Notes: generated by a model not told the origin, from the letters alone. 32,000 nt of DNA from Candidatus Velamenicoccus archaeovorus (GCF_004102945.1 NZ_CP019384.1:1290001-1322000), one strand, 5' to 3'. Numbered from the stretch's first letter, positions 9,702 through 21,199 are shown. A program made the numbers and translations.

Positions 9702-9830
9702 AGTCAACCCATATTCCCCGGCCTCGGCCTGCCCTTCGGGCAAGGCCAGGGCCGGAGCTTGTTTCGGGTTACTCTAAGCGGCCACAACATTCTTGCGCCC
9801 TAAAGGGCGGAGCTTTAGGCCGCGCAGAGT
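9702..9830. repeat. structured intergenic repeat, copy A (129 nt)
   Basis: It aligns by eye with 22460-22573 in the same orientation. There are about nine differences outside one replaced hairpin. Conserved stems are CTCT..GCGGCC/GGCCGC..AGAG and GCCC-TAAA-GGGC. Confidence 0.75.
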
Positions 9831-15551: not shown

Positions 15552-16238
15552 TCATTTGACCTCTTTTTCCTCTTTAGATTCTGTCTTTGCTTCCTGGACG
15601 ACGGTCCCCGCACTCTTAGTCTCATGCCTTGCTTCCTGTTTTGCTGCAGGGACTACGGCGGCCTCTTCCTGGCTGCCGGCATACTTGAACTTAAATGCCG
15701 CCTTGGAAAGCTTGCCGAAAAGCTCCAGGTCCTGCTTGAGGAGCGGCGCCGGTTCGATGATACGCGAAAAACCCTCCCAGACGCCAAACCATCCCAAGGG
15801 CATCAGGATGATGGCGATCAGCTCCAGGGCCAGTTTATCGAGCATCTGAAAATATGTCAGCATGGTCAGGGATGACAAAGATGCAATACCCCCGACGACA
15901 AACAAAGACCCTTTGCGGATCGCCAGCGCGATCTCTTTCTGAAGCGACAGGTGACGGAACTTAAAATACTGCTTGAGACGCTTGTTCACCAGCTTCTCGG
16001 TCACCTCGTCCTTCAAAGAAGCCGGCGCGTAGATCGTGATGACAAACTCGCCCCTCTGCGTCTCGCGATATCTCTTTTTTAATTCCGAGAGAAAATCCTC
16101 GGAAAGGATGCGCTGGTCGATGGGGCTGGGGTCGAAGTCGGAGAATACGTCGTCCCAGGAATCAATCGCAATGGATATCTCCTGAATATCCTTGATATGC
16201 TCTTCAATCTCCGCAGTCTTTTCAGGTTTTTCGGGCAT
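15552..16238 (-). CDS. hypothetical membrane protein (acidic N-terminal domain, two predicted TM helices, Lys/Glu-rich tail)
   Basis: The ORF is 15552-16304, and ATG 16238 (MPEKPEKTAEIEEHIKD...) is the only ATG near the 5' end. Hydrophobic stretches are LFVVGGIASLSSLTMLTYF and LELIAIILMPLGWFGVW. No clear Shine-Dalgarno is present, so the start is uncertain. Confidence 0.6.
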   Translation of the reverse strand: MPEKPEKTAEIEEHIKDIQEISIAIDSWDDVFSDFDPSPIDQRILSEDFLSELKKRYRETQRGEFVITIYAPASLKDEVTEKLVNKRLKQYFKFRHLSLQKEIALAIRKGSLFVVGGIASLSSLTMLTYFQMLDKLALELIAIILMPLGWFGVWEGFSRIIEPAPLLKQDLELFGKLSKAAFKFKYAGSQEEAAVVPAAKQEARHETKSAGTVVQEAKTESKEEKEVK

Positions 16239-16278
16239 TGTCGTCAAGGAGGCAGGAAACCAAAAAAAGAAAAACGAA

Positions 16279-16351
16279 AATCGACAATCGAAAATAGACC
16301 GCAATCGAGAAAAACTTCCTAATATCTCATCTCGATTTTCGATTCTCGATT
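16279..16351. repeat. array of AATCGA / TCGATT hexamers in inverted arrangement (7-nt phasing)
   Basis: AATCGA occurs at 16279, 16286 and 16303. TCGATT occurs at 16332, 16339 and 16346. It lies between the tRNA terminator hairpin and the hypothetical membrane-protein gene. Confidence 0.55.
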
Positions 16352-16356
16352 GCTCT

Positions 16357-16389
16357 GCATTAAATTTTTGCAGAGCAAAAATTTAATGC
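16357..16389 (-). terminator. perfect 15-bp AT-rich hairpin abutting the duplicated tRNA-Phe 3' end (probable original tRNA terminator)
   Basis: GCATTAAATTTTTGC (16357-16371), loop AGA, GCAAAAATTTAATGC (16375-16389). The last 3 nt belong to the tRNA 3'-end copy. Confidence 0.55.
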
Positions 16390-16416
16390 CCAGAGAGGGA
16401 ATTGAACCCCCGACGC
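16387..16416 (-). repeat. 30-nt exact duplicate of the tRNA-Phe 3' end (att-like direct repeat / tRNA fragment)
   Basis: TGCCCAGAGAGGGAATTGAACCCCCGACGC at 16387-16416 is identical to 16601-16630. The segment covers the variable loop, T arm, 3' acceptor strand and discriminator. Confidence 0.9.
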
Positions 16417-16600
16417 GTCGCTTGCGCTCCCCATAGGAGACAACCTACGGTTTTCTCCTATGGCGTCCGCCTTAACACTGAAGGCGGACTGTCACCTCTT
16501 TCCCTCAAAAATATGGAATTGAGGGAAGGTTTCCCTCAAACTCCCTTCATGCGTCTATGATTCAAACTCGTCTTGAACCAATACGTCGAGAAAATAAAAG
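16417..16600 (-). mobile_element. 184-nt ORF-free, hairpin-dense insert between tRNA-Phe and its duplicated 3' end (possible remnant or non-autonomous integrative element)
   Basis: It is bounded by the 30-nt direct repeat. Perfect stems lie at 16431-16463 (10 bp) and 16465-16489 (9 bp), and there is a TTCCCTCAA/TTGAGGGAA/TTCCCTCAA triad at 16500-16539. The mobile-element interpretation is inference. Confidence 0.35.
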
Positions 16601-16673
16601 TGCCCAGAGAGGGAATTGAACCCCCGACGCATGGATTTTCAGTCCATCGCTCTACCGACTGAGCTATCTGGGC
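16601..16673 (-). tRNA. tRNA-Phe (anticodon GAA), CCA not encoded
   Basis: GCCCAGATAGCTCAGTCGGTAGAGCGATGGACTGAAAATCCATGCGTCGGGGGTTCAATTCCCTCTCTGGGCA folds as a standard cloverleaf. Stems are acceptor GCCCAGA/TCTGGGC, D GCTC/GAGC and anticodon ATGGA/TCCAT, with anticodon loop CTGAAAA. Confidence 0.95.
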
Positions 16674-16742
16674 GATGATCACAAAAAACAGACTTATATC
16701 AAAATCTATGTCGGTCGGGACCGACTTCCGCCTCGGCCTTGC

Positions 16743-16773
16743 CCTCGGCCTGCCCTTCGGGCAAGGCCAGGGC
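16743..16773. repeat. 31-nt GC hairpin module identical to 9722-9752
   Basis: CCTCGGCCTGCCCTTCGGGCAAGGCCAGGGC is present here and inside repeat copy A. Confidence 0.8.
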
Positions 16774-16791
16774 GGACCAGCCTACGGCTGG

Positions 16792-16804
16792 GAGCTATCT
16801 GGGC
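16792..16804 (-). repeat. 13-nt duplicate of the tRNA-Phe 5' end
   Basis: GAGCTATCTGGGC at 16792-16804 is identical to 16661-16673. That segment is the 5' acceptor strand, U8/A9 and the 5' D-stem strand. It lies 118 nt upstream of the tRNA in tRNA orientation. Confidence 0.6.
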
Positions 16805-16828
16805 AGGACATTGCCAAAATATGCGCTA

Positions 16829-16851
16829 AAATTTTTTCGAAGAAAAAATTT
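16829..16851 (-). terminator. 10-bp A/T-only hairpin abutting the duplicated tRNA-Leu 3' end
   Basis: AAATTTTTTC (16829-16838), loop GAA, GAAAAAATTT (16842-16851), immediately next to the copy at 16852. Confidence 0.5.
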
Positions 16852-16869
16852 ATGCCGGGAGAGGGAGTT
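16852..16869 (-). repeat. 18-nt exact duplicate of the tRNA-Leu 3' end plus 1 flanking nt (att-like direct repeat)
   Basis: ATGCCGGGAGAGGGAGTT at 16852-16869 is identical to 17011-17028. The segment runs from the T loop to the discriminator, plus one trailing nt. Confidence 0.85.
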
Positions 16870-17011
16870 TTCCTCCCCCGCCTCGCATTCGCTCGGCTCC
16901 ACCGGAACCGGGCGCCCCTCGCTCGAACCAGTGGCGCTCAGGGTCGCCTTCAACTCCCGTTCTGCTGTAATCTATCCTTTTCGTCGAACACAAATACTAT
17001 AGCTAAAAAAA
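16870..17011 (-). mobile_element. 142-nt ORF-free insert between tRNA-Leu and its duplicated 3' end
   Basis: It is bounded by the 18-nt direct repeat. The end next to the tRNA is AT-rich and the distal end is GC-rich. The mobile-element interpretation is inference. Confidence 0.35.
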
Positions 17012-17095
17012 TGCCGGGAGAGGGAGTTGAACCCTCAAGCCCTTACGAGCGTAGCGCCCTGAACGCTATGTGTTTGCCAATTTCACCATCCCGGC
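17012..17095 (-). tRNA. tRNA-Leu (anticodon CAG), type II with long variable arm, CCA not encoded
   Basis: GCCGGGATGGTGAAATTGGCAAACACATAGCGTTCAGGGCGCTACGCTCGTAAGGGCTTGAGGGTTCAACTCCCTCTCCCGGCA. Stems are acceptor GCCGGGA/TCCCGGC, anticodon TAGCG/CGCTA and T GAGGG/CCCTC, with anticodon loop TTCAGGG. Confidence 0.93.
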
Positions 17096-17109
17096 GTTAA
17101 GCAGCAAAA

Positions 17110-17138
17110 AGTATAACCCGTTGCGCCCCGACTGTCAA
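17110..17138 (-). promoter_or_regulatory. sigma70-type promoter for tRNA-Leu
   Basis: On the minus strand: TTGACA (17138-17133), a 17-nt spacer, TATACT (17115-17110). The tRNA 5' end is 14 nt downstream. Confidence 0.6.
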
Positions 17139-17199
17139 ATTGTTTATGGGGTCCCGCCCGTGCTGAAGCAAGGGGTTCCCGCTCCAGCGACATACTTGA

Positions 17200-17244
17200 G
17201 CGGCCAAAGCCATCCGTGGCCTAAGGGCCGCGGTCTTTGGCCGC
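17200..17244. repeat. long GC hairpin downstream of mgtA, resembling the 3' half of the 9702/22460 repeat
   Basis: The outer stem is GCGGCCAAAG (17200-17209)/CTTTGGCCGC (17235-17244), with inner CCGTGGCC-TAAG-GGCCGCGG. It shares AGCGGCCA...CTAA(A)GGG...CTTT(A)GGCCGC with copies A and B. Confidence 0.5.
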
Positions 17245-17283
17245 ACAAGTATAGAAGCGCGCTGCCCGGAAAAAAGCCAAGGC

Positions 17284-19842
17284 CTATTCATACCCGTATT
17301 TATCTATAAATTTGCTCTTCACCGTCTGGACGACCCATAAATACGCGGCCACAATGCAGACAAGGGCCGCAAAATACAACGGCGGCGGCTGGACGAAACC
17401 GAAATATTTGGACAAGGGCGTGAAGGGGATCAAGAGGCCGATCGTAACGATATAAATCGACGAAAACATCAAGAACGGACTGGGCCTGCTTTCGACAAAC
17501 GGGATCTTGCCCGTGCGGATGACGTAGATGACCAGGGTCTGGGTGATCAGCGATTCCAAAAACCACCCTGTATGAAAAAGCTTCGGCGATGCGTTAAAAA
17601 GGAACAAAAGGACGCCGAAGGTCACAAAATCGAATACGGAACTGATGGGTCCGAAAAAAAGCATGAACTTCTTGATATAACCCACATTCCAGGGCCGGGA
17701 CCGCAGCAGATACTCATCATCGACCTCGTCGGTGGGAACGGCGATCTGTGACAGGTCGTAAAGAAAATTGTTCAAGAGGATCTGGATCGGCAGCATCGGC
17801 AGGAAAGGCAAGCAAAGGCTGGCGCCCGTCATACTGATCATGTTGCCGAAATTGGAGCTCGACCCCATCTTGATGTATTTGAGGATGTTGCCGAACGTCC
17901 TGCGGCCTTCAGTCACCCCCTCGGCCAGGACAATGAGACTCTTTTTCAACAGAATGATATCCGCCGATTCCTTGGCGATATCCACCGCATTGTTGACGGA
18001 AATGCCGACATCGGCCGCCTTCAGCGCCGCCGCGTCATTGATACCGTCCCCCAGATAGCCGACGACGTGCTTGTTTCTGTGAAGCGCCCGGATGACCCTC
18101 TCTTTTTGCAAAGGCGATAGCCGCGCAAAGACAGAAGTCACCTCCACCAGCTCCGCCAATTCCTCGTCGCTGATCTTGTCGATCGCGTCGCCCGTAGCCA
18201 GGCCCATGACACTGATGCCGACGTCGATACAAATCTTGCGCGTCACCAGCTCATTGTCTCCTGTCAGCACCTTTAATTCTATCCCCAGACGCCGCAAGGC
18301 CTCGATGGTCTTCTTGGTGGTCGGCTTTGGCGGATCCAGGAAAGCGATGTACCCCTTGAGCACCAGCCCCTGCTCGTCGTCTTTCGTATAGCGTTCTTTG
18401 GAGATGTCCATACTCCTGTAAGCGACAGCCAGGACCCTGAACCCTTCGGCGCTAAGACGGTCGCATTCTTCCTTAAGGTCCGTCAGGATCATCTGGTTGA
18501 TCTCGAGGGTCTCGCCTTCCAACTCGTAGGTCGCGCACCGCTTGAATATCTCCTCGGGAGCACCCTTGGAGATCAACGTATGCCTGCCTTCGGAGCCCAC
18601 GACAACCGACATCATCTTCCTGGAAAAATCAAACGGGATCTCGTCGATCTTGGCATAATCCTCGATCTTCAACTTCTCATGCTTCAAGATAGCCCGGTCA
18701 AGGATGTTTTTAAGGCCCGTCTGGTAATAGCTGTTGATGAAGGCCAGCTTAAGGACCTCGTCGTCTTCCTGCCTGACCACATCGCAGTGTTTCTCCAGGA
18801 CGATCCTGTCGAGTGTGAGCGTGCCGGTCTTGTCCGTGCACAAGACATTCATGGCCCCGAAATTCTGGATGGAGTTCAGCCTCTTGACGATAACGTCTTT
18901 TTTGGACATCGCCAGGGCGCCTTTGGACAGATTGATGGCGACGAGCATCGGCAGCATCTCGGGCGTGAGACCTACGGCAACGGCCAGAGAAAAAAGCAGG
19001 GCCTGAACGATGTTGCCTCTTAGGAAAGCGTTGACGGCAAATATGACGACGACCAAGATGAGCATGAAACGGATCATCAGCCACGTAAAACTGCGAATAC
19101 CTTTGTCGAAACTGCTCTCGATCTGGATGGAAGCCAACCGCCGGGAGAGCTCGCCGAACTGGGTGGCGACCCCGGTCTTCACCGCGACCCCGAGGCCGGT
19201 GCCGCTGACGACGCTGGAACCCATGAAAGCGATGTTCGTCATGTCCACCGGAGATTGCGTTTTCGGATCAGCGGGGCCCGCCGTCTTCTCGACGGGAAAG
19301 GACTCTCCCGTCAAAGACGCCTGATTGATGAAAAGATCCTTGCAGAAGATGATCCGCAGGTCCGCCGGGATCATGTCGCCGGCAAAAAGATCCACGATAT
19401 CGCCGGGGACGATCTCCCTGATCGGGATCTCCCGCGCCCGGCCGTTACGATAGACCGTTGCCGTGGCGCGGACCATCTCGCTCAATTTTTCCGCCTCGCG
19501 GCCTGCGCGGTGCTCCTGCACAAAAGACAAAAGGACGCTGATCAACGCCATCAGGACGACAAGAAGAGCGCTGATCTTCTCTCCGAAAAACAGGGAAAAA
19601 CCGGCAATCACCAGAAGGACGATGACGAGAGGATTTAAAAACCTGGAAAGGATCTCGAAAAGAACGGCCCTCTTTTTCTTTTTGGCGGGTTCGTTGTAAC
19701 CGTAGACCGACAGACGCTCCCGGGCCTCATGATCCGTCAGCCCTTTTTGGGACGTGGCGAACTTCTCGAAAAGCGCTTCGTGGGCGCAACGGGCGTAATC
19801 GAAATCGGAAAGGCCGGAGATAAGAGATAGTTTGTTGTCCAT
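17284..19842 (-). CDS. mgtA: magnesium-translocating P-type ATPase
   Basis: 852 aa with CTDKTGTLT (phosphorylation site), TGDN and GDGINDAAAL. Overall architecture and termini are MgtA/MgtB-like. Confidence 0.92.
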   Translation of the reverse strand: MDNKLSLISGLSDFDYARCAHEALFEKFATSQKGLTDHEARERLSVYGYNEPAKKKKRAVLFEILSRFLNPLVIVLLVIAGFSLFFGEKISALLVVLMALISVLLSFVQEHRAGREAEKLSEMVRATATVYRNGRAREIPIREIVPGDIVDLFAGDMIPADLRIIFCKDLFINQASLTGESFPVEKTAGPADPKTQSPVDMTNIAFMGSSVVSGTGLGVAVKTGVATQFGELSRRLASIQIESSFDKGIRSFTWLMIRFMLILVVVIFAVNAFLRGNIVQALLFSLAVAVGLTPEMLPMLVAINLSKGALAMSKKDVIVKRLNSIQNFGAMNVLCTDKTGTLTLDRIVLEKHCDVVRQEDDEVLKLAFINSYYQTGLKNILDRAILKHEKLKIEDYAKIDEIPFDFSRKMMSVVVGSEGRHTLISKGAPEEIFKRCATYELEGETLEINQMILTDLKEECDRLSAEGFRVLAVAYRSMDISKERYTKDDEQGLVLKGYIAFLDPPKPTTKKTIEALRRLGIELKVLTGDNELVTRKICIDVGISVMGLATGDAIDKISDEELAELVEVTSVFARLSPLQKERVIRALHRNKHVVGYLGDGINDAAALKAADVGISVNNAVDIAKESADIILLKKSLIVLAEGVTEGRRTFGNILKYIKMGSSSNFGNMISMTGASLCLPFLPMLPIQILLNNFLYDLSQIAVPTDEVDDEYLLRSRPWNVGYIKKFMLFFGPISSVFDFVTFGVLLFLFNASPKLFHTGWFLESLITQTLVIYVIRTGKIPFVESRPSPFLMFSSIYIVTIGLLIPFTPLSKYFGFVQPPPLYFAALVCIVAAYLWVVQTVKSKFIDKYGYE

Positions 19843-19844
19843 GC

Positions 19845-21167
19845 TTAAAGGGTATCGATAAAATCGTCAAAATCGATATTCTCGCCGAGGGCTTCTTTGG
19901 TCGCCCGGATCCTGCGACCGTAGCCGGGATGGGTCTTAAAATAAGACAGGGCCTGCGGGGGCTCCTTCTTCTGCCTCTTGCGGAGTTTGTCCAGAAACTC
20001 AATCATCCCCTGGGGGTTATATCCCGCCCTCTTGGCGTAAATCGCGCCCATCCCGTCGGCCGTAAGCTCGTCTTCCTGGGAATAGCCGGAAAGCAAAAAA
20101 GCGTAGGCCATCTGCACGCCCTGCGCCGCTTCCGCATTTTTCGTCGCGCCGGCGAGGATCGTCAGGATATTATAGCCCCAGATCGCCTGGAGGCGCTTGA
20201 TGCTGTGGCGCGCCACGATATGCGCCACCTCGTGGGCGACGACAGCGGCCAGCTCATCGTCCGTATCCGCCACCGTCATCAGATTCTTGAAAATATAGAT
20301 GTAGCCGCCCGGCAGAGAAACCGCGTTCACGAGGTCTTTGTCCTTCGGGTCCTCGATGATGCGGAAGCGGTATGTCAGGTCGTGGCGGTCGCTGGCCTGG
20401 GCGACCTTGGCGCCGACGCGATCCAGGCGCTCGTTCATCTGGGGATCCTGGACGACCGTATAATTCTTCTCGACCTGCGCGGCCAGGGAATCGCCGATGG
20501 CCACCTCCCTTTCCGTCGAATACATCATCGTATCTTCTTTGTGCGTCGCCAGGTTGTATTCCGTCGAGCAGCCATTGACGGCAAAACCGCACAATACCAG
20601 CAAAAGAGAAACGCCGAATTTCTTGAGCATTACGCGCAGCCGGGCGATCGGCAGACCCACCACATTGAAATAGCATCCGCGGATACGACGGATGAACGAC
20701 CCTCCCAGGCCCTGGACATCGAAACCTCCCGCCTTGTCCAAAGGCGAGACCTTGCGGAAATACTGCGCGATCTCCCGGTCGCTCAAAGGCTCCATCTCGA
20801 TGCGCGTCTCTTCTACTTCCGTCATCTCCCGCCCGCTGGCGGCATCGATGACGGCGATGCCGGTATAAAGGACATGGGGCCTATGCGAGAGTCTCTTGAG
20901 CATCGCGCGCGCCTCTTTCAATGACGCGGGCTTGCCGAAAGCCCTGCCATCCTGCCAGACAAGGGTATCGCATCCGACGACAATCCCCTTCTTGACGCGC
21001 CGAGCCGCGTCGCGTGCTTTCAGCAAGGCATTGGCCGCCACCGTCCGCGCCGGATGCCGCACAGCGTCCGCATGCTCTTTGACGCGCGCAGGCATCACCC
21101 TGAATTTCACGCCGAGAGCCTCGAGCAATTTTTTCCTGGCCTTGGATTTCGAAGCAAGGATCAACAT
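19845..21167 (-). CDS. single ORF: Maf-like nucleoside-triphosphate pyrophosphatase fused in frame to an M48-family metallopeptidase lipoprotein
   Basis: The N-terminal ~185 aa are Maf-like (LILASKSKARKKLL...GGFDVQGLGGSFIRRIRGCYFNVVGLPIARL). An internal ATG at 20630 then opens MLKKFGVSLLLVLCGFAVNGC (lipoprotein-type signal), followed by an M48 domain with HEVAHIVARH. No stop codon separates the two parts. I chose the start at ATG 21167, 8 nt after a GGAGG. The M48 part may also be translated on its own from 20630. Confidence 0.8.
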   Translation of the reverse strand: MLILASKSKARKKLLEALGVKFRVMPARVKEHADAVRHPARTVAANALLKARDAARRVKKGIVVGCDTLVWQDGRAFGKPASLKEARAMLKRLSHRPHVLYTGIAVIDAASGREMTEVEETRIEMEPLSDREIAQYFRKVSPLDKAGGFDVQGLGGSFIRRIRGCYFNVVGLPIARLRVMLKKFGVSLLLVLCGFAVNGCSTEYNLATHKEDTMMYSTEREVAIGDSLAAQVEKNYTVVQDPQMNERLDRVGAKVAQASDRHDLTYRFRIIEDPKDKDLVNAVSLPGGYIYIFKNLMTVADTDDELAAVVAHEVAHIVARHSIKRLQAIWGYNILTILAGATKNAEAAQGVQMAYAFLLSGYSQEDELTADGMGAIYAKRAGYNPQGMIEFLDKLRKRQKKEPPQALSYFKTHPGYGRRIRATKEALGENIDFDDFIDTL

Positions 21168-21199
21168 AACCATCGCCTCCAAAACTCAGAATTATCGCG

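Follow-up and report, generated by a model that had tools for sequence, protein, structure and literature searches.

When a partial copy of a tRNA gene lies next to the intact gene it is usually read as the scar of a large integrated element, since tRNA genes are classic landing sites of genomic islands; what, then, has happened at a locus where such a scar bounds only 184 nucleotides (nt) of DNA that encode nothing? The question is raised by a 32,000-nt stretch of the genome of Candidatus Velamenicoccus archaeovorus (GCF_004102945.1 NZ_CP019384.1:1290001-1322000; hereafter the window, with positions counted from its first nucleotide). The window covers a region of housekeeping genes (Tex, RecJ, ArgRS, TrpA, TrpB, a P-type ATPase, LptF/G and others); on its minus strand, an intact tRNA-Phe(GAA) gene is followed by a short insert and then by an exact copy of its own 3′ end. 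We propose, with a probability of roughly 0.6, that positions 16387-16600 represent a single copy of a miniature integrative module that contains no gene and is specific for tRNA gene 3′ ends.

All the elements that a sequence-only reading had described at this locus are present, namely the tRNA gene, an insert free of convincing open reading frames (ORFs), a 30-nt copy of the tRNA 3′ end and a 15-base-pair (bp) AT-rich hairpin behind that copy (Table 1). The repeat, GCGTCGGGGGTTCAATTCCCTCTCTGGGCA, occurs at 16601-16630 and again at 16387-16416 with 30 of 30 positions identical (0 mismatches), and no repeat of this length is expected by chance in 100 shuffles. The ORFs of the insert span only 25-52 amino acids, none of them convincingly coding, and it folds much more stably than shuffled sequence in both orientations (z = -4.4 sense, -5.3 antisense). 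The AT-rich hairpin shares the last 3 nt of the distal tRNA-Phe copy.

Approximately 30 distinct versions of the locus were collected via the neighbouring 228-amino-acid protein and ribosomal protein L28, the syntenic loci (designated L001 and so forth) coming from metagenome-assembled genomes labelled Candidatus Omnitrophota. Two of these, L052 and L053, whose flanking genes share 88-96% identity with those of the window, supply the empty site for which the sequence-only reading had asked: the tRNA-Phe gene abuts the AT hairpin directly, its end, ...TCTCTGGGCA, continuing into TTAAATTTTTGCTCTGCAAAAATTTAATGCAGAGCAATCGAG, which is the hairpin and flank found 3′ of the distal copy in the window. 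BLAST comparison of the window with L052/L053 yields two pieces that both include the repeat, which is the pattern that a 214-nt insertion with a 30-nt duplication at its borders should leave. These 214 nt, with tRNA-3′ repeats on either side, constitute an insertion/deletion polymorphism, and the distal copy, which is continuous with the native flank in L052, is together with its hairpin the native gene end, in agreement with what had been suggested from the window alone.

The site also turns over between closely related genomes. The outgroup L005 has the same flank as the window and no module, and in L001/L002 (flanks 98-99.8% identical) a different, 63-nt module occupies the same place and ends in a 16-nt tRNA copy whose junction falls in the T loop. 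Eleven lineages carry neither module nor repeat 3′ of tRNA-Phe. Three features described below had not been anticipated by the initial reading: the module has a covarying secondary structure whose strand bias is typical of RNA, the neighbouring tRNA-Leu shows the same architecture, and part of the hairpin density stems from a REP-like hairpin.

The window module is a member of a family rather than an isolated relic. Its ordered hairpins are found again 3′ of tRNA-Phe (family B) in L003/L016, L010 and L012, whose neighbouring protein is only 67-69% identical to that of the window, and L048 has a truncated family-B copy. Family 2, found 3′ of tRNA-Phe in L007, L008, L009 and the L020 group, has a common core with family B that consists of RGG-TRAC-AG, a variable hairpin, CGCCAK, a hairpin AGGRG..CYCCT and WTGR. 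In L017 a related core, with a block ACAGTCCGCC..GGCGGACGCCATAGG in common with the window, lies 3′ of tRNA-Leu and has a tail copied from tRNA-Leu; a covariance model of four Phe-linked family-B copies retrieves this Leu-linked copy over its full length with a marginal score (21.6 bits, E = 0.011) and does not detect family 2. Family A, finally, lies behind tRNA-Leu(CAG) in the window itself as well as in L004, L009, L020 and L043, with a mean column identity of 85%, and is lacking in seven other lineages; one of these is L052, in which the tRNA-Leu gene lies inverted and has an ordinary terminator behind it. A metagenome pattern scan for the family-B core returned only L016.

The tails of the units match the local tRNA variant in every case (Phe TTCAATTCCCTC vs TTCGATTCCGTC; Leu CTCCCTC vs GTCCCTT), and only the last 14-16 nt are common to the tails of all units. 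Repeats in the relatives measure 14-34 nt, sometimes with additional flank, for an overall range of 14 to ~100 nt: in L010 and L012 they reach 60-70 nt past the tRNA into the trailer. Their 5′ boundary lies in the variable loop in family B; in family 2 it can be nt 41, the T loop or the T-stem. Units occur in tandem. There are two in L007, and among L020-L029 (Joint Genome Institute (JGI) samples with an identical 197-amino-acid neighbouring protein, P0034), where several contigs end within the family-2 array, the number of 159-nt units varies from one through two to at least three; several of the amplified units (L007, L020) have no T arm altogether. In the ~0.7 Mb examined, modules were found only beside tRNA-Phe and tRNA-Leu, in unit sizes of 130-250 bases, and in no locus does a 3′ copy lie more than 1.5 kb from its tRNA, which indicates that the units are inherently small. 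The comparison thus adds to the initial picture a conserved structured family, its tandem amplification and its retargeting between tRNA-Phe and tRNA-Leu; searches of the open-access literature returned general accounts of partial tRNAs at integrated elements and no description of these modules.

Table 1. Positions in the window of the tRNA genes, the two modules and their parts
Feature	Position	Strand	Remarks
tRNA-Leu(CAG)	17012-17095	minus	module lies 3′ of the gene
Family A module	16853-17011	minus	T-run, ~140-nt module, 16-nt tRNA-Leu 3′ copy
Antisense T-arm segment of family A, GGGAGTTGAA	16949-16958	minus	10/10 antisense
Family A hairpin with GAAT loop	16880-16897	minus	
T-arm-like hairpin of family A	16863-16877	minus	
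16-nt copy of tRNA-Leu 3′ end	16853-16868	minus	
AT hairpin 3′ of family A module	16829-16851	minus	resembles the hairpin at tRNA-Phe
Upstream partial copy of tRNA-Phe 5′ end	16710-16804	minus	first ~20 nt; GCCCAGATAGCTC at 16792-16804, AGTCGGT at 16720-16726
tRNA-Phe(GAA), intact	16601-16673	minus	ARAGORN; Rfam tRNA, 73.7 bits; last 30 nt (16601-16630) form the proximal repeat
Insert between repeats	16417-16600	minus	184 nt, T-rich run at start
Module left end	16566-16600	minus	C followed by T-rich trailer CTTTTATTTTCTCGACGTATTGG
Antisense segment TTGAATCATAGACGCATG	16548-16565	minus	14/18 antisense to tRNA-Phe nt 39-56 and to the distal copy
Hairpin P2	16519-16539	minus	TTGAGGGAA-ACC-TTCCCTCAA; conserved GGGAGTT just before
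Conserved motif TTTGAGGGAAAGAGGTGACAG	16489-16509	minus	contains the second TTTGAGGGAAA copy and the superfamily signature RGG-TRAC-AG
Hairpin P4	16465-16489	minus	GTCCGCC..GGCGGAC; REP-like
Hairpin P5	16431-16463	minus	CCAT-AGGAGAAAACC-GTA-GGTTGTCTCCT-ATGG; best supported helix
P6 region	16417-16430	minus	GGA-(GC-GCAA-GC)-GAC; short hairpin
Distal 30-nt tRNA-Phe copy	16387-16416	minus	exact; variable loop, T arm, acceptor 3′ strand, A73
AT-rich hairpin	16357-16389	minus	arms 16357-16371 and 16375-16389; 15 bp, 100% complementary, 3-nt loop

Close to the 5′ side of every module there is a stretch that is antisense to a portion of the T-arm region and could close the module by pairing with its tRNA-derived part. 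In the window, the TTGAATCATAGACGCATG segment can pair as a long closing helix, P1, and overlaps a GGTTCAA..TTGAATC palindrome at 16559-16579; the corresponding segment of family A varies in step with the T loop of the neighbouring tRNA. Over eight family members, aligned by hand with hand-written helices, the tRNA-sense strand yields 266 Watson-Crick pairs, 11 G·U pairs, 0 A·C pairs and 8 other mismatches. Compensatory changes are found at 15 positions in four helices (P5, 4 of 9; P2, 4 of 9; family-2 P4, 5 of 8; family-2 closing helix P1, 2 of 12), as simple counts made by hand on 3-8 sequences, only 3-5 of which are independent in any one module family, and with family-B P4 left out as REP-like; the covariance-model alignment, polluted by antisense matches of the palindromic P5, was excluded from the pair counts. 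The P6 stem is wholly different among relatives (GCTC/GAGC, GCCC/GGGC, CGTCCCGAC/GTCGGGACG), and for family A, where the sequences are 85% identical and therefore show little covariation, the fold predicted with RNAalifold is uncertain. Part of the hairpin density of the insert is due to a REP-like (repetitive extragenic palindromic) hairpin that recurs elsewhere: the P4 stem TCCGCC..GGCGGA is also present in other, unrelated inserts, namely the one designated Y, that of L004 and the nested insert of L003.

The G·U pairs of P5 occur on the tRNA-sense strand only. G·U pairing without A·C pairing points to selection on RNA of the tRNA-sense strand, or on that single DNA strand, and such a bias would not be expected for double-stranded protein-binding sites; these data suggest that the module core is a co-transcribed RNA. 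Given that no promoter-like site is found inside the window module, its position 3′ of a tRNA gene and the G·U bias make read-through from the tRNA promoter the simplest reading. Comparison with Rfam 15 (4227 models), carried out at the gathering threshold for the window and up to E = 10 for positions 16000-17400 and for the L025 family-2 array, recovered only tRNAs and noise, and ARAGORN, which together with Rfam provided the tRNA calls, detected no tRNA, intron-containing tRNA or transfer-messenger RNA (tmRNA) in any module.

We propose that the integrative unit is made up of a T-run resembling a tRNA trailer, a core of 130-190 nt with conserved hairpins and a tail identical to the last 14-34 nt of the target tRNA. 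A single Campbell-type crossover between the tail and the resident tRNA gene would leave an intact tRNA on one side and, on the other, the old 3′ end followed by its AT hairpin. Through a second crossover, now within the repeats, the module would be removed cleanly and the empty site restored, and tandem arrays would result from repeated integration or unequal exchange. Two catalysts can be envisaged. A tyrosine integrase could act in trans, as for cis-mobilisable elements (CIMEs), an option to which the use of tRNA-Phe by integrases points (the L001, L006 and L031 islands lie directly upstream). Alternatively, host homologous recombination could act on DNA taken up from relatives, with the tRNA and the tail serving as arms; pointing to this route are the L010 and L012 repeats that extend beyond the tRNA and the TTTTCTCRACGTATT part of the window trailer, which is also present 3′ of tRNA-Phe in L003 and L007 and which in L007 represents the chromosomal flank of tRNA-Phe, being found even after the last copy. 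The core would most likely be read through from the tRNA promoter and act, or be selected, as RNA. We infer the recombination route, the transcription and the RNA role alike from comparative sequence data.

An extension of this model, which we consider possible but doubtful, is that the modules are ‘tRNA-riding’ RNA cassettes, that is, structured non-coding RNAs with neither promoter nor recombinase that would spread by insertion behind tRNA genes. Their tail would serve both as a recombination handle and as a signal restoring a tRNA-type 3′ end, and a swap of tails would account for the retargeting from Phe to Leu. If true, tRNA-riding cassettes would constitute a class of mobile elements whose defining feature is an RNA plus a tRNA tail instead of a protein.

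Several observations weigh against an integrative module. Neither a recombinase nor a reverse transcriptase is found among the larger ORFs of the window, and no helper element using an attachment (att) site in the tRNA-Phe 3′ end is present at the loci examined, a search that sampled the tRNA-Phe locus only and with which a helper elsewhere in the genome remains compatible. The integrase islands at tRNA-Phe in L001, L006 and L031 duplicate nt 1-41 of the tRNA, not its 3′ end; the initial proposal of an att-like, integrase-mediated insertion is borne out by the empty site as far as an insertion with tRNA-3′ repeats is concerned and is conjectural as regards the integrase. Islands bounded by the same 3′ repeat, which that proposal had led one to look for, were not seen in the ~30 lineages, nor was any kb-scale island bounded by 3′ copies. 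According to the published classification, integrases cross over at a fixed tRNA sublocation (anticodon loop, T loop or 3′ end) in each element family, and a repeat whose 5′ boundary varies within one family is odd for a fixed integrase crossover. No attP form or excised circle was encountered in the viral, phage and plasmid collections scanned: BLAST of the module against phage and plasmid collections gave no match, and viral contigs returned 0 matches each to the family-B pattern, to family A, to the P4-P5 block and to the window-type tRNA-Phe 25-mer, and 10 chance matches without module features to a family-2 16-mer; their matches to the tail of tRNA-Leu and to the other type of tRNA-Phe tail were confined to tRNA arrays of phages and to ordinary prophages from other bacteria, the latter with a 45-nt att starting in the anticodon loop. 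Furthermore, the module is 90.6% identical between the window and L003, about the genome-wide divergence, so that within this clade inheritance and loss are possible instead of new gain; the module may be old in the clade of the window and cleanly lost in L052. Lastly, the copy number of units in metagenome contigs may in part be an assembly effect, and P4, being REP-like, is uninformative on RNA function.

As to the islands themselves, that of L001 (441-9762) spans 9 kb with an integrase, TerL and HTH_17 proteins between the first 41 nt of tRNA-Phe and the complete tRNA-Phe gene, and its integrase gene ends 6 nt before tRNA-Phe. Opposite to the usual layout, it is thus the 5′ part of the tRNA that the island provides. 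Homologous integrases with 66-77% amino acid identity are found at the same position in L006 (8670-9868) and L031 (1-585), and a 26-amino-acid integrase remnant in L008 (3174-3251).

The selection apparent on the tRNA-sense strand could also be explained by a resident, immobile RNA gene passed on by vertical descent. Such a gene would have arisen as a tandem paralogue of the tRNA in which a large structured domain took the place of the anticodon arm while the T arm and acceptor 3′ strand were kept; gene conversion would hold its repeat identical, and many lineages would have lost it. In line with such an origin, structure is conserved, family A is highly similar across lineages, and the divergence of the window and L003 modules equals that of their flanks. 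Moreover, the L008 unit can be drawn as an acceptor GCCTGCG, a D-arm-like hairpin, a long arm, a variable loop, a T arm and an acceptor 3′ strand, its 5′ part showing a weak similarity to the 5′ part of tRNA-Phe with scores reached in 2 of 500 and 9 of 500 shuffles. By the same shuffle test, however, the window module has no detectable 5′ tRNA part, and ARAGORN and Rfam are negative as stated above; the amplified L007 and L020 units do without the T arm that such a gene should have kept. Near-identical strains, furthermore, have a different module or none, and related cores end in a tail of the Phe type in some genomes and of the Leu type in L017. We regard a resident RNA gene as unlikely.

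The sequence-only reading had offered two possibilities, a non-autonomous element or an extremely decayed island, and the former fits better with conserved small units, arrays and alternative modules. Under the latter, a large integrase island or prophage would have entered the 3′ end of tRNA-Phe and only the arms next to attL and attR would be left. Direct repeats of a tRNA 3′ end are the classic outcome of integrase insertion (bioRxiv 10.1101/2020.12.28.424599; PMC9897764), tRNA-Phe is an active integration site as judged by the islands of L001, L006 and L031 and the remnant of L008, and the size of the module is about that of a phage attP with arms. Independent deletions, on the other hand, would not converge on a small ordered core that is found intact both in lineages whose neighbouring proteins are 67-95% identical and at tRNA-Leu. 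The tandem amplification of the units, the lack of kb-scale 3′-bounded islands and the use of the 5′ 41 nt by the known islands all stand against this scenario, as do the compensatory changes and G·U strand bias, which would be unexpected for protein-binding arms, and we judge it quite improbable.

Spread through an RNA intermediate has a precedent in the Neurospora retroplasmids, which have tRNA-like 3′ ends and spread via reverse transcription. Here, a trailer RNA that begins with the base following A73 of the tRNA and ends with A73 of the copy would be reverse transcribed in trans, and the complementary DNA would enter the tRNA gene via its tail. The units can be phased exactly so as to begin right behind one A73 and end at the next, with a tRNA-like tail, structure appears to be selected on the transcribed strand, and the antisense T-arm copy near the 5′ side of the module is something that fold-back synthesis could make. 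The repeats, however, let any phase fit equally; no reverse transcriptase is found in the window or at the loci examined, and the junctions show no poly-A or CCA, given that the CCA after the copy in L003 and L004 fits the native flank too. Such a route thus appears very improbable. That the duplication is spurious and was created at metagenome assembly has next to nothing to recommend it, for although the source is evidently a metagenome-assembled genome and some contigs of the relatives break off within tandem units, usual assembly k-mers exceed the 30 nt of the repeat, and the module type of the window recurs, with divergence and compensatory changes, in assemblies of independent projects (L003 and L016, which are independent assemblies of one species, L010 and L012).

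Other known kinds of element were considered and rejected. A group I or II intron would be larger than the module and would leave no target repeat; a guide RNA of the IS200/IS605 or IS110 type would not be expected to have a long repeat, and no such gene lies nearby; a casposon-type target duplication would have a fixed length of 14-15 bp; an integron cassette would have an attC-like consensus, which is missing; and T-box, tmRNA and Y RNA gave no model match. Miniature inverted-repeat transposable elements (MITEs) have terminal inverted repeats, a fixed target duplication and many dispersed copies, and here the repeat varies from 14 to ~100 nt, copies lie only 3′ of tRNA-Phe or tRNA-Leu, and the inverted segment is tRNA-derived.

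How, then, do miniature modules of this kind relate to established systems? CIMEs, as known from the ICESt1/ICESt3 family, are kb-scale deletion derivatives of a known integrative and conjugative element, whose att sites and helper they share. The modules resemble them in their attL/attR-like direct repeats, the lack of recombination genes of their own, a presumed trans-acting recombinase and tandem placement, and differ in their size of 0.13-0.25 kb, in having no helper or parent at the sampled locus and in the RNA-like covariation of the core. In Neisseria, minimal mobile elements are gene cassettes swapped by transformation and homologous recombination between conserved flanks; there, as here, one site holds alternative cassettes or is empty and no dedicated recombinase is needed, but the Neisseria cassettes carry genes and lie between two conserved genes, whereas here the arms are the tRNA gene and its own 3′ copy. 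REP sequences and bacterial interspersed mosaic elements (BIMEs) are small GC-rich intergenic palindromic hairpins, to which the recurrent P4 stem is akin, while the complete module is made up of several different helices in a fixed order and a tail derived from a tRNA. Like tmRNA and YrlA, the modules join a T arm and an acceptor 3′ strand to a larger non-tRNA domain; unlike them, they match no model, have no convincing 5′ acceptor strand, take their tail from the neighbouring tRNA and show presence/absence polymorphism. tRNA-gene islands and tycheposons combine a full tRNA with a partial copy, and also include tandem elements split by partial tRNAs and degraded remnants (bioRxiv 10.1101/2020.12.28.424599; PMC9897764). 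They carry an integrase and cargo, whereas the modules are gene-less and were never seen to exceed a few hundred bases; of the features by which integrase elements are recognized, tRNA-derived direct repeats and an unoccupied site are found here, and an integrase inside the element is not. Overall, we rate the modules as a miniature, non-coding integrative kind bounded by tRNA tails, with an RNA-like core, and as distinct from integrase islands, CIMEs, MITEs and curated RNA families.

At this locus, the scars thus bound complete, conserved gene-less units that turn over between near-identical strains and carry a Phe or a Leu tail. This would make for a very small integrative unit, little beyond an attachment site and a core that is structured and probably transcribed, in a phylum of ultra-small bacteria that is poorly known. 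Should the core RNA prove functional, or the units move without a dedicated integrase, the notion of a mobile element would be widened. On a practical level, the partial tRNA copies and hairpin arrays of the modules confuse tRNA annotation and metagenome assembly.

The distal tRNA-Phe copy has itself been interrupted in some relatives. In L003 (9895-9949; also in L016), a 55-nt GC-rich hairpin pair is inserted in the T loop of the copy, cleanly and without a target repeat (GGGGGTT, insert, CAATTCCC), and in L001 and L004 hairpins also adjoin the tRNA-Phe copy at the T loop. At the other tRNA gene, tRNA-Leu is inverted together with its promoter between the window (17012-17148) and L052 (19123-19260), with collinear flanking genes.

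Upstream of tRNA-Phe, at ~120 nt from the gene, lies a further partial copy, of its 5′ end (Table 1), which is also present in L001, L004, L005, L011 and L052. This copy is split by two hairpins in the D-loop region, one of which shows a compensatory change between the window and L004. One of the two hairpins holds a GC-rich block, GGCCTCGGCCTGCCCTTCGGGCAAGGCC... at 16743-16773, which has an exact 31-nt copy in another intergenic region of the window at 9722-9752 and one of 30-31 nt in L052 (6348-6377), and which looks like a dispersed palindrome of the REP type. A different palindromic element, with a stem GGTTCGACG..CGTCGAACC, is found on both sides of tRNA-Phe with oppositely oriented loops (L001 163-310 and 9763-9836; L052 ~19015-19057), its 5′-side copy being flanked by a 9-nt repeat, CCCAGATAG.

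Between the AT hairpin and the gene of the 228-amino-acid protein, positions 16262-16356 contain many repeats of the GAAAATCGA / TCGATTTTC type in both orientations; a related repeat block lies 3′ of tRNA-Leu in L003 (9385-9500), which suggests that this block also moves or duplicates. Farther away on the minus strand, a single 445-amino-acid ORF at 19845-21182 combines Maf and peptidase M48 domains, and the same fusion is found in relatives as proteins of 440-446 amino acids.

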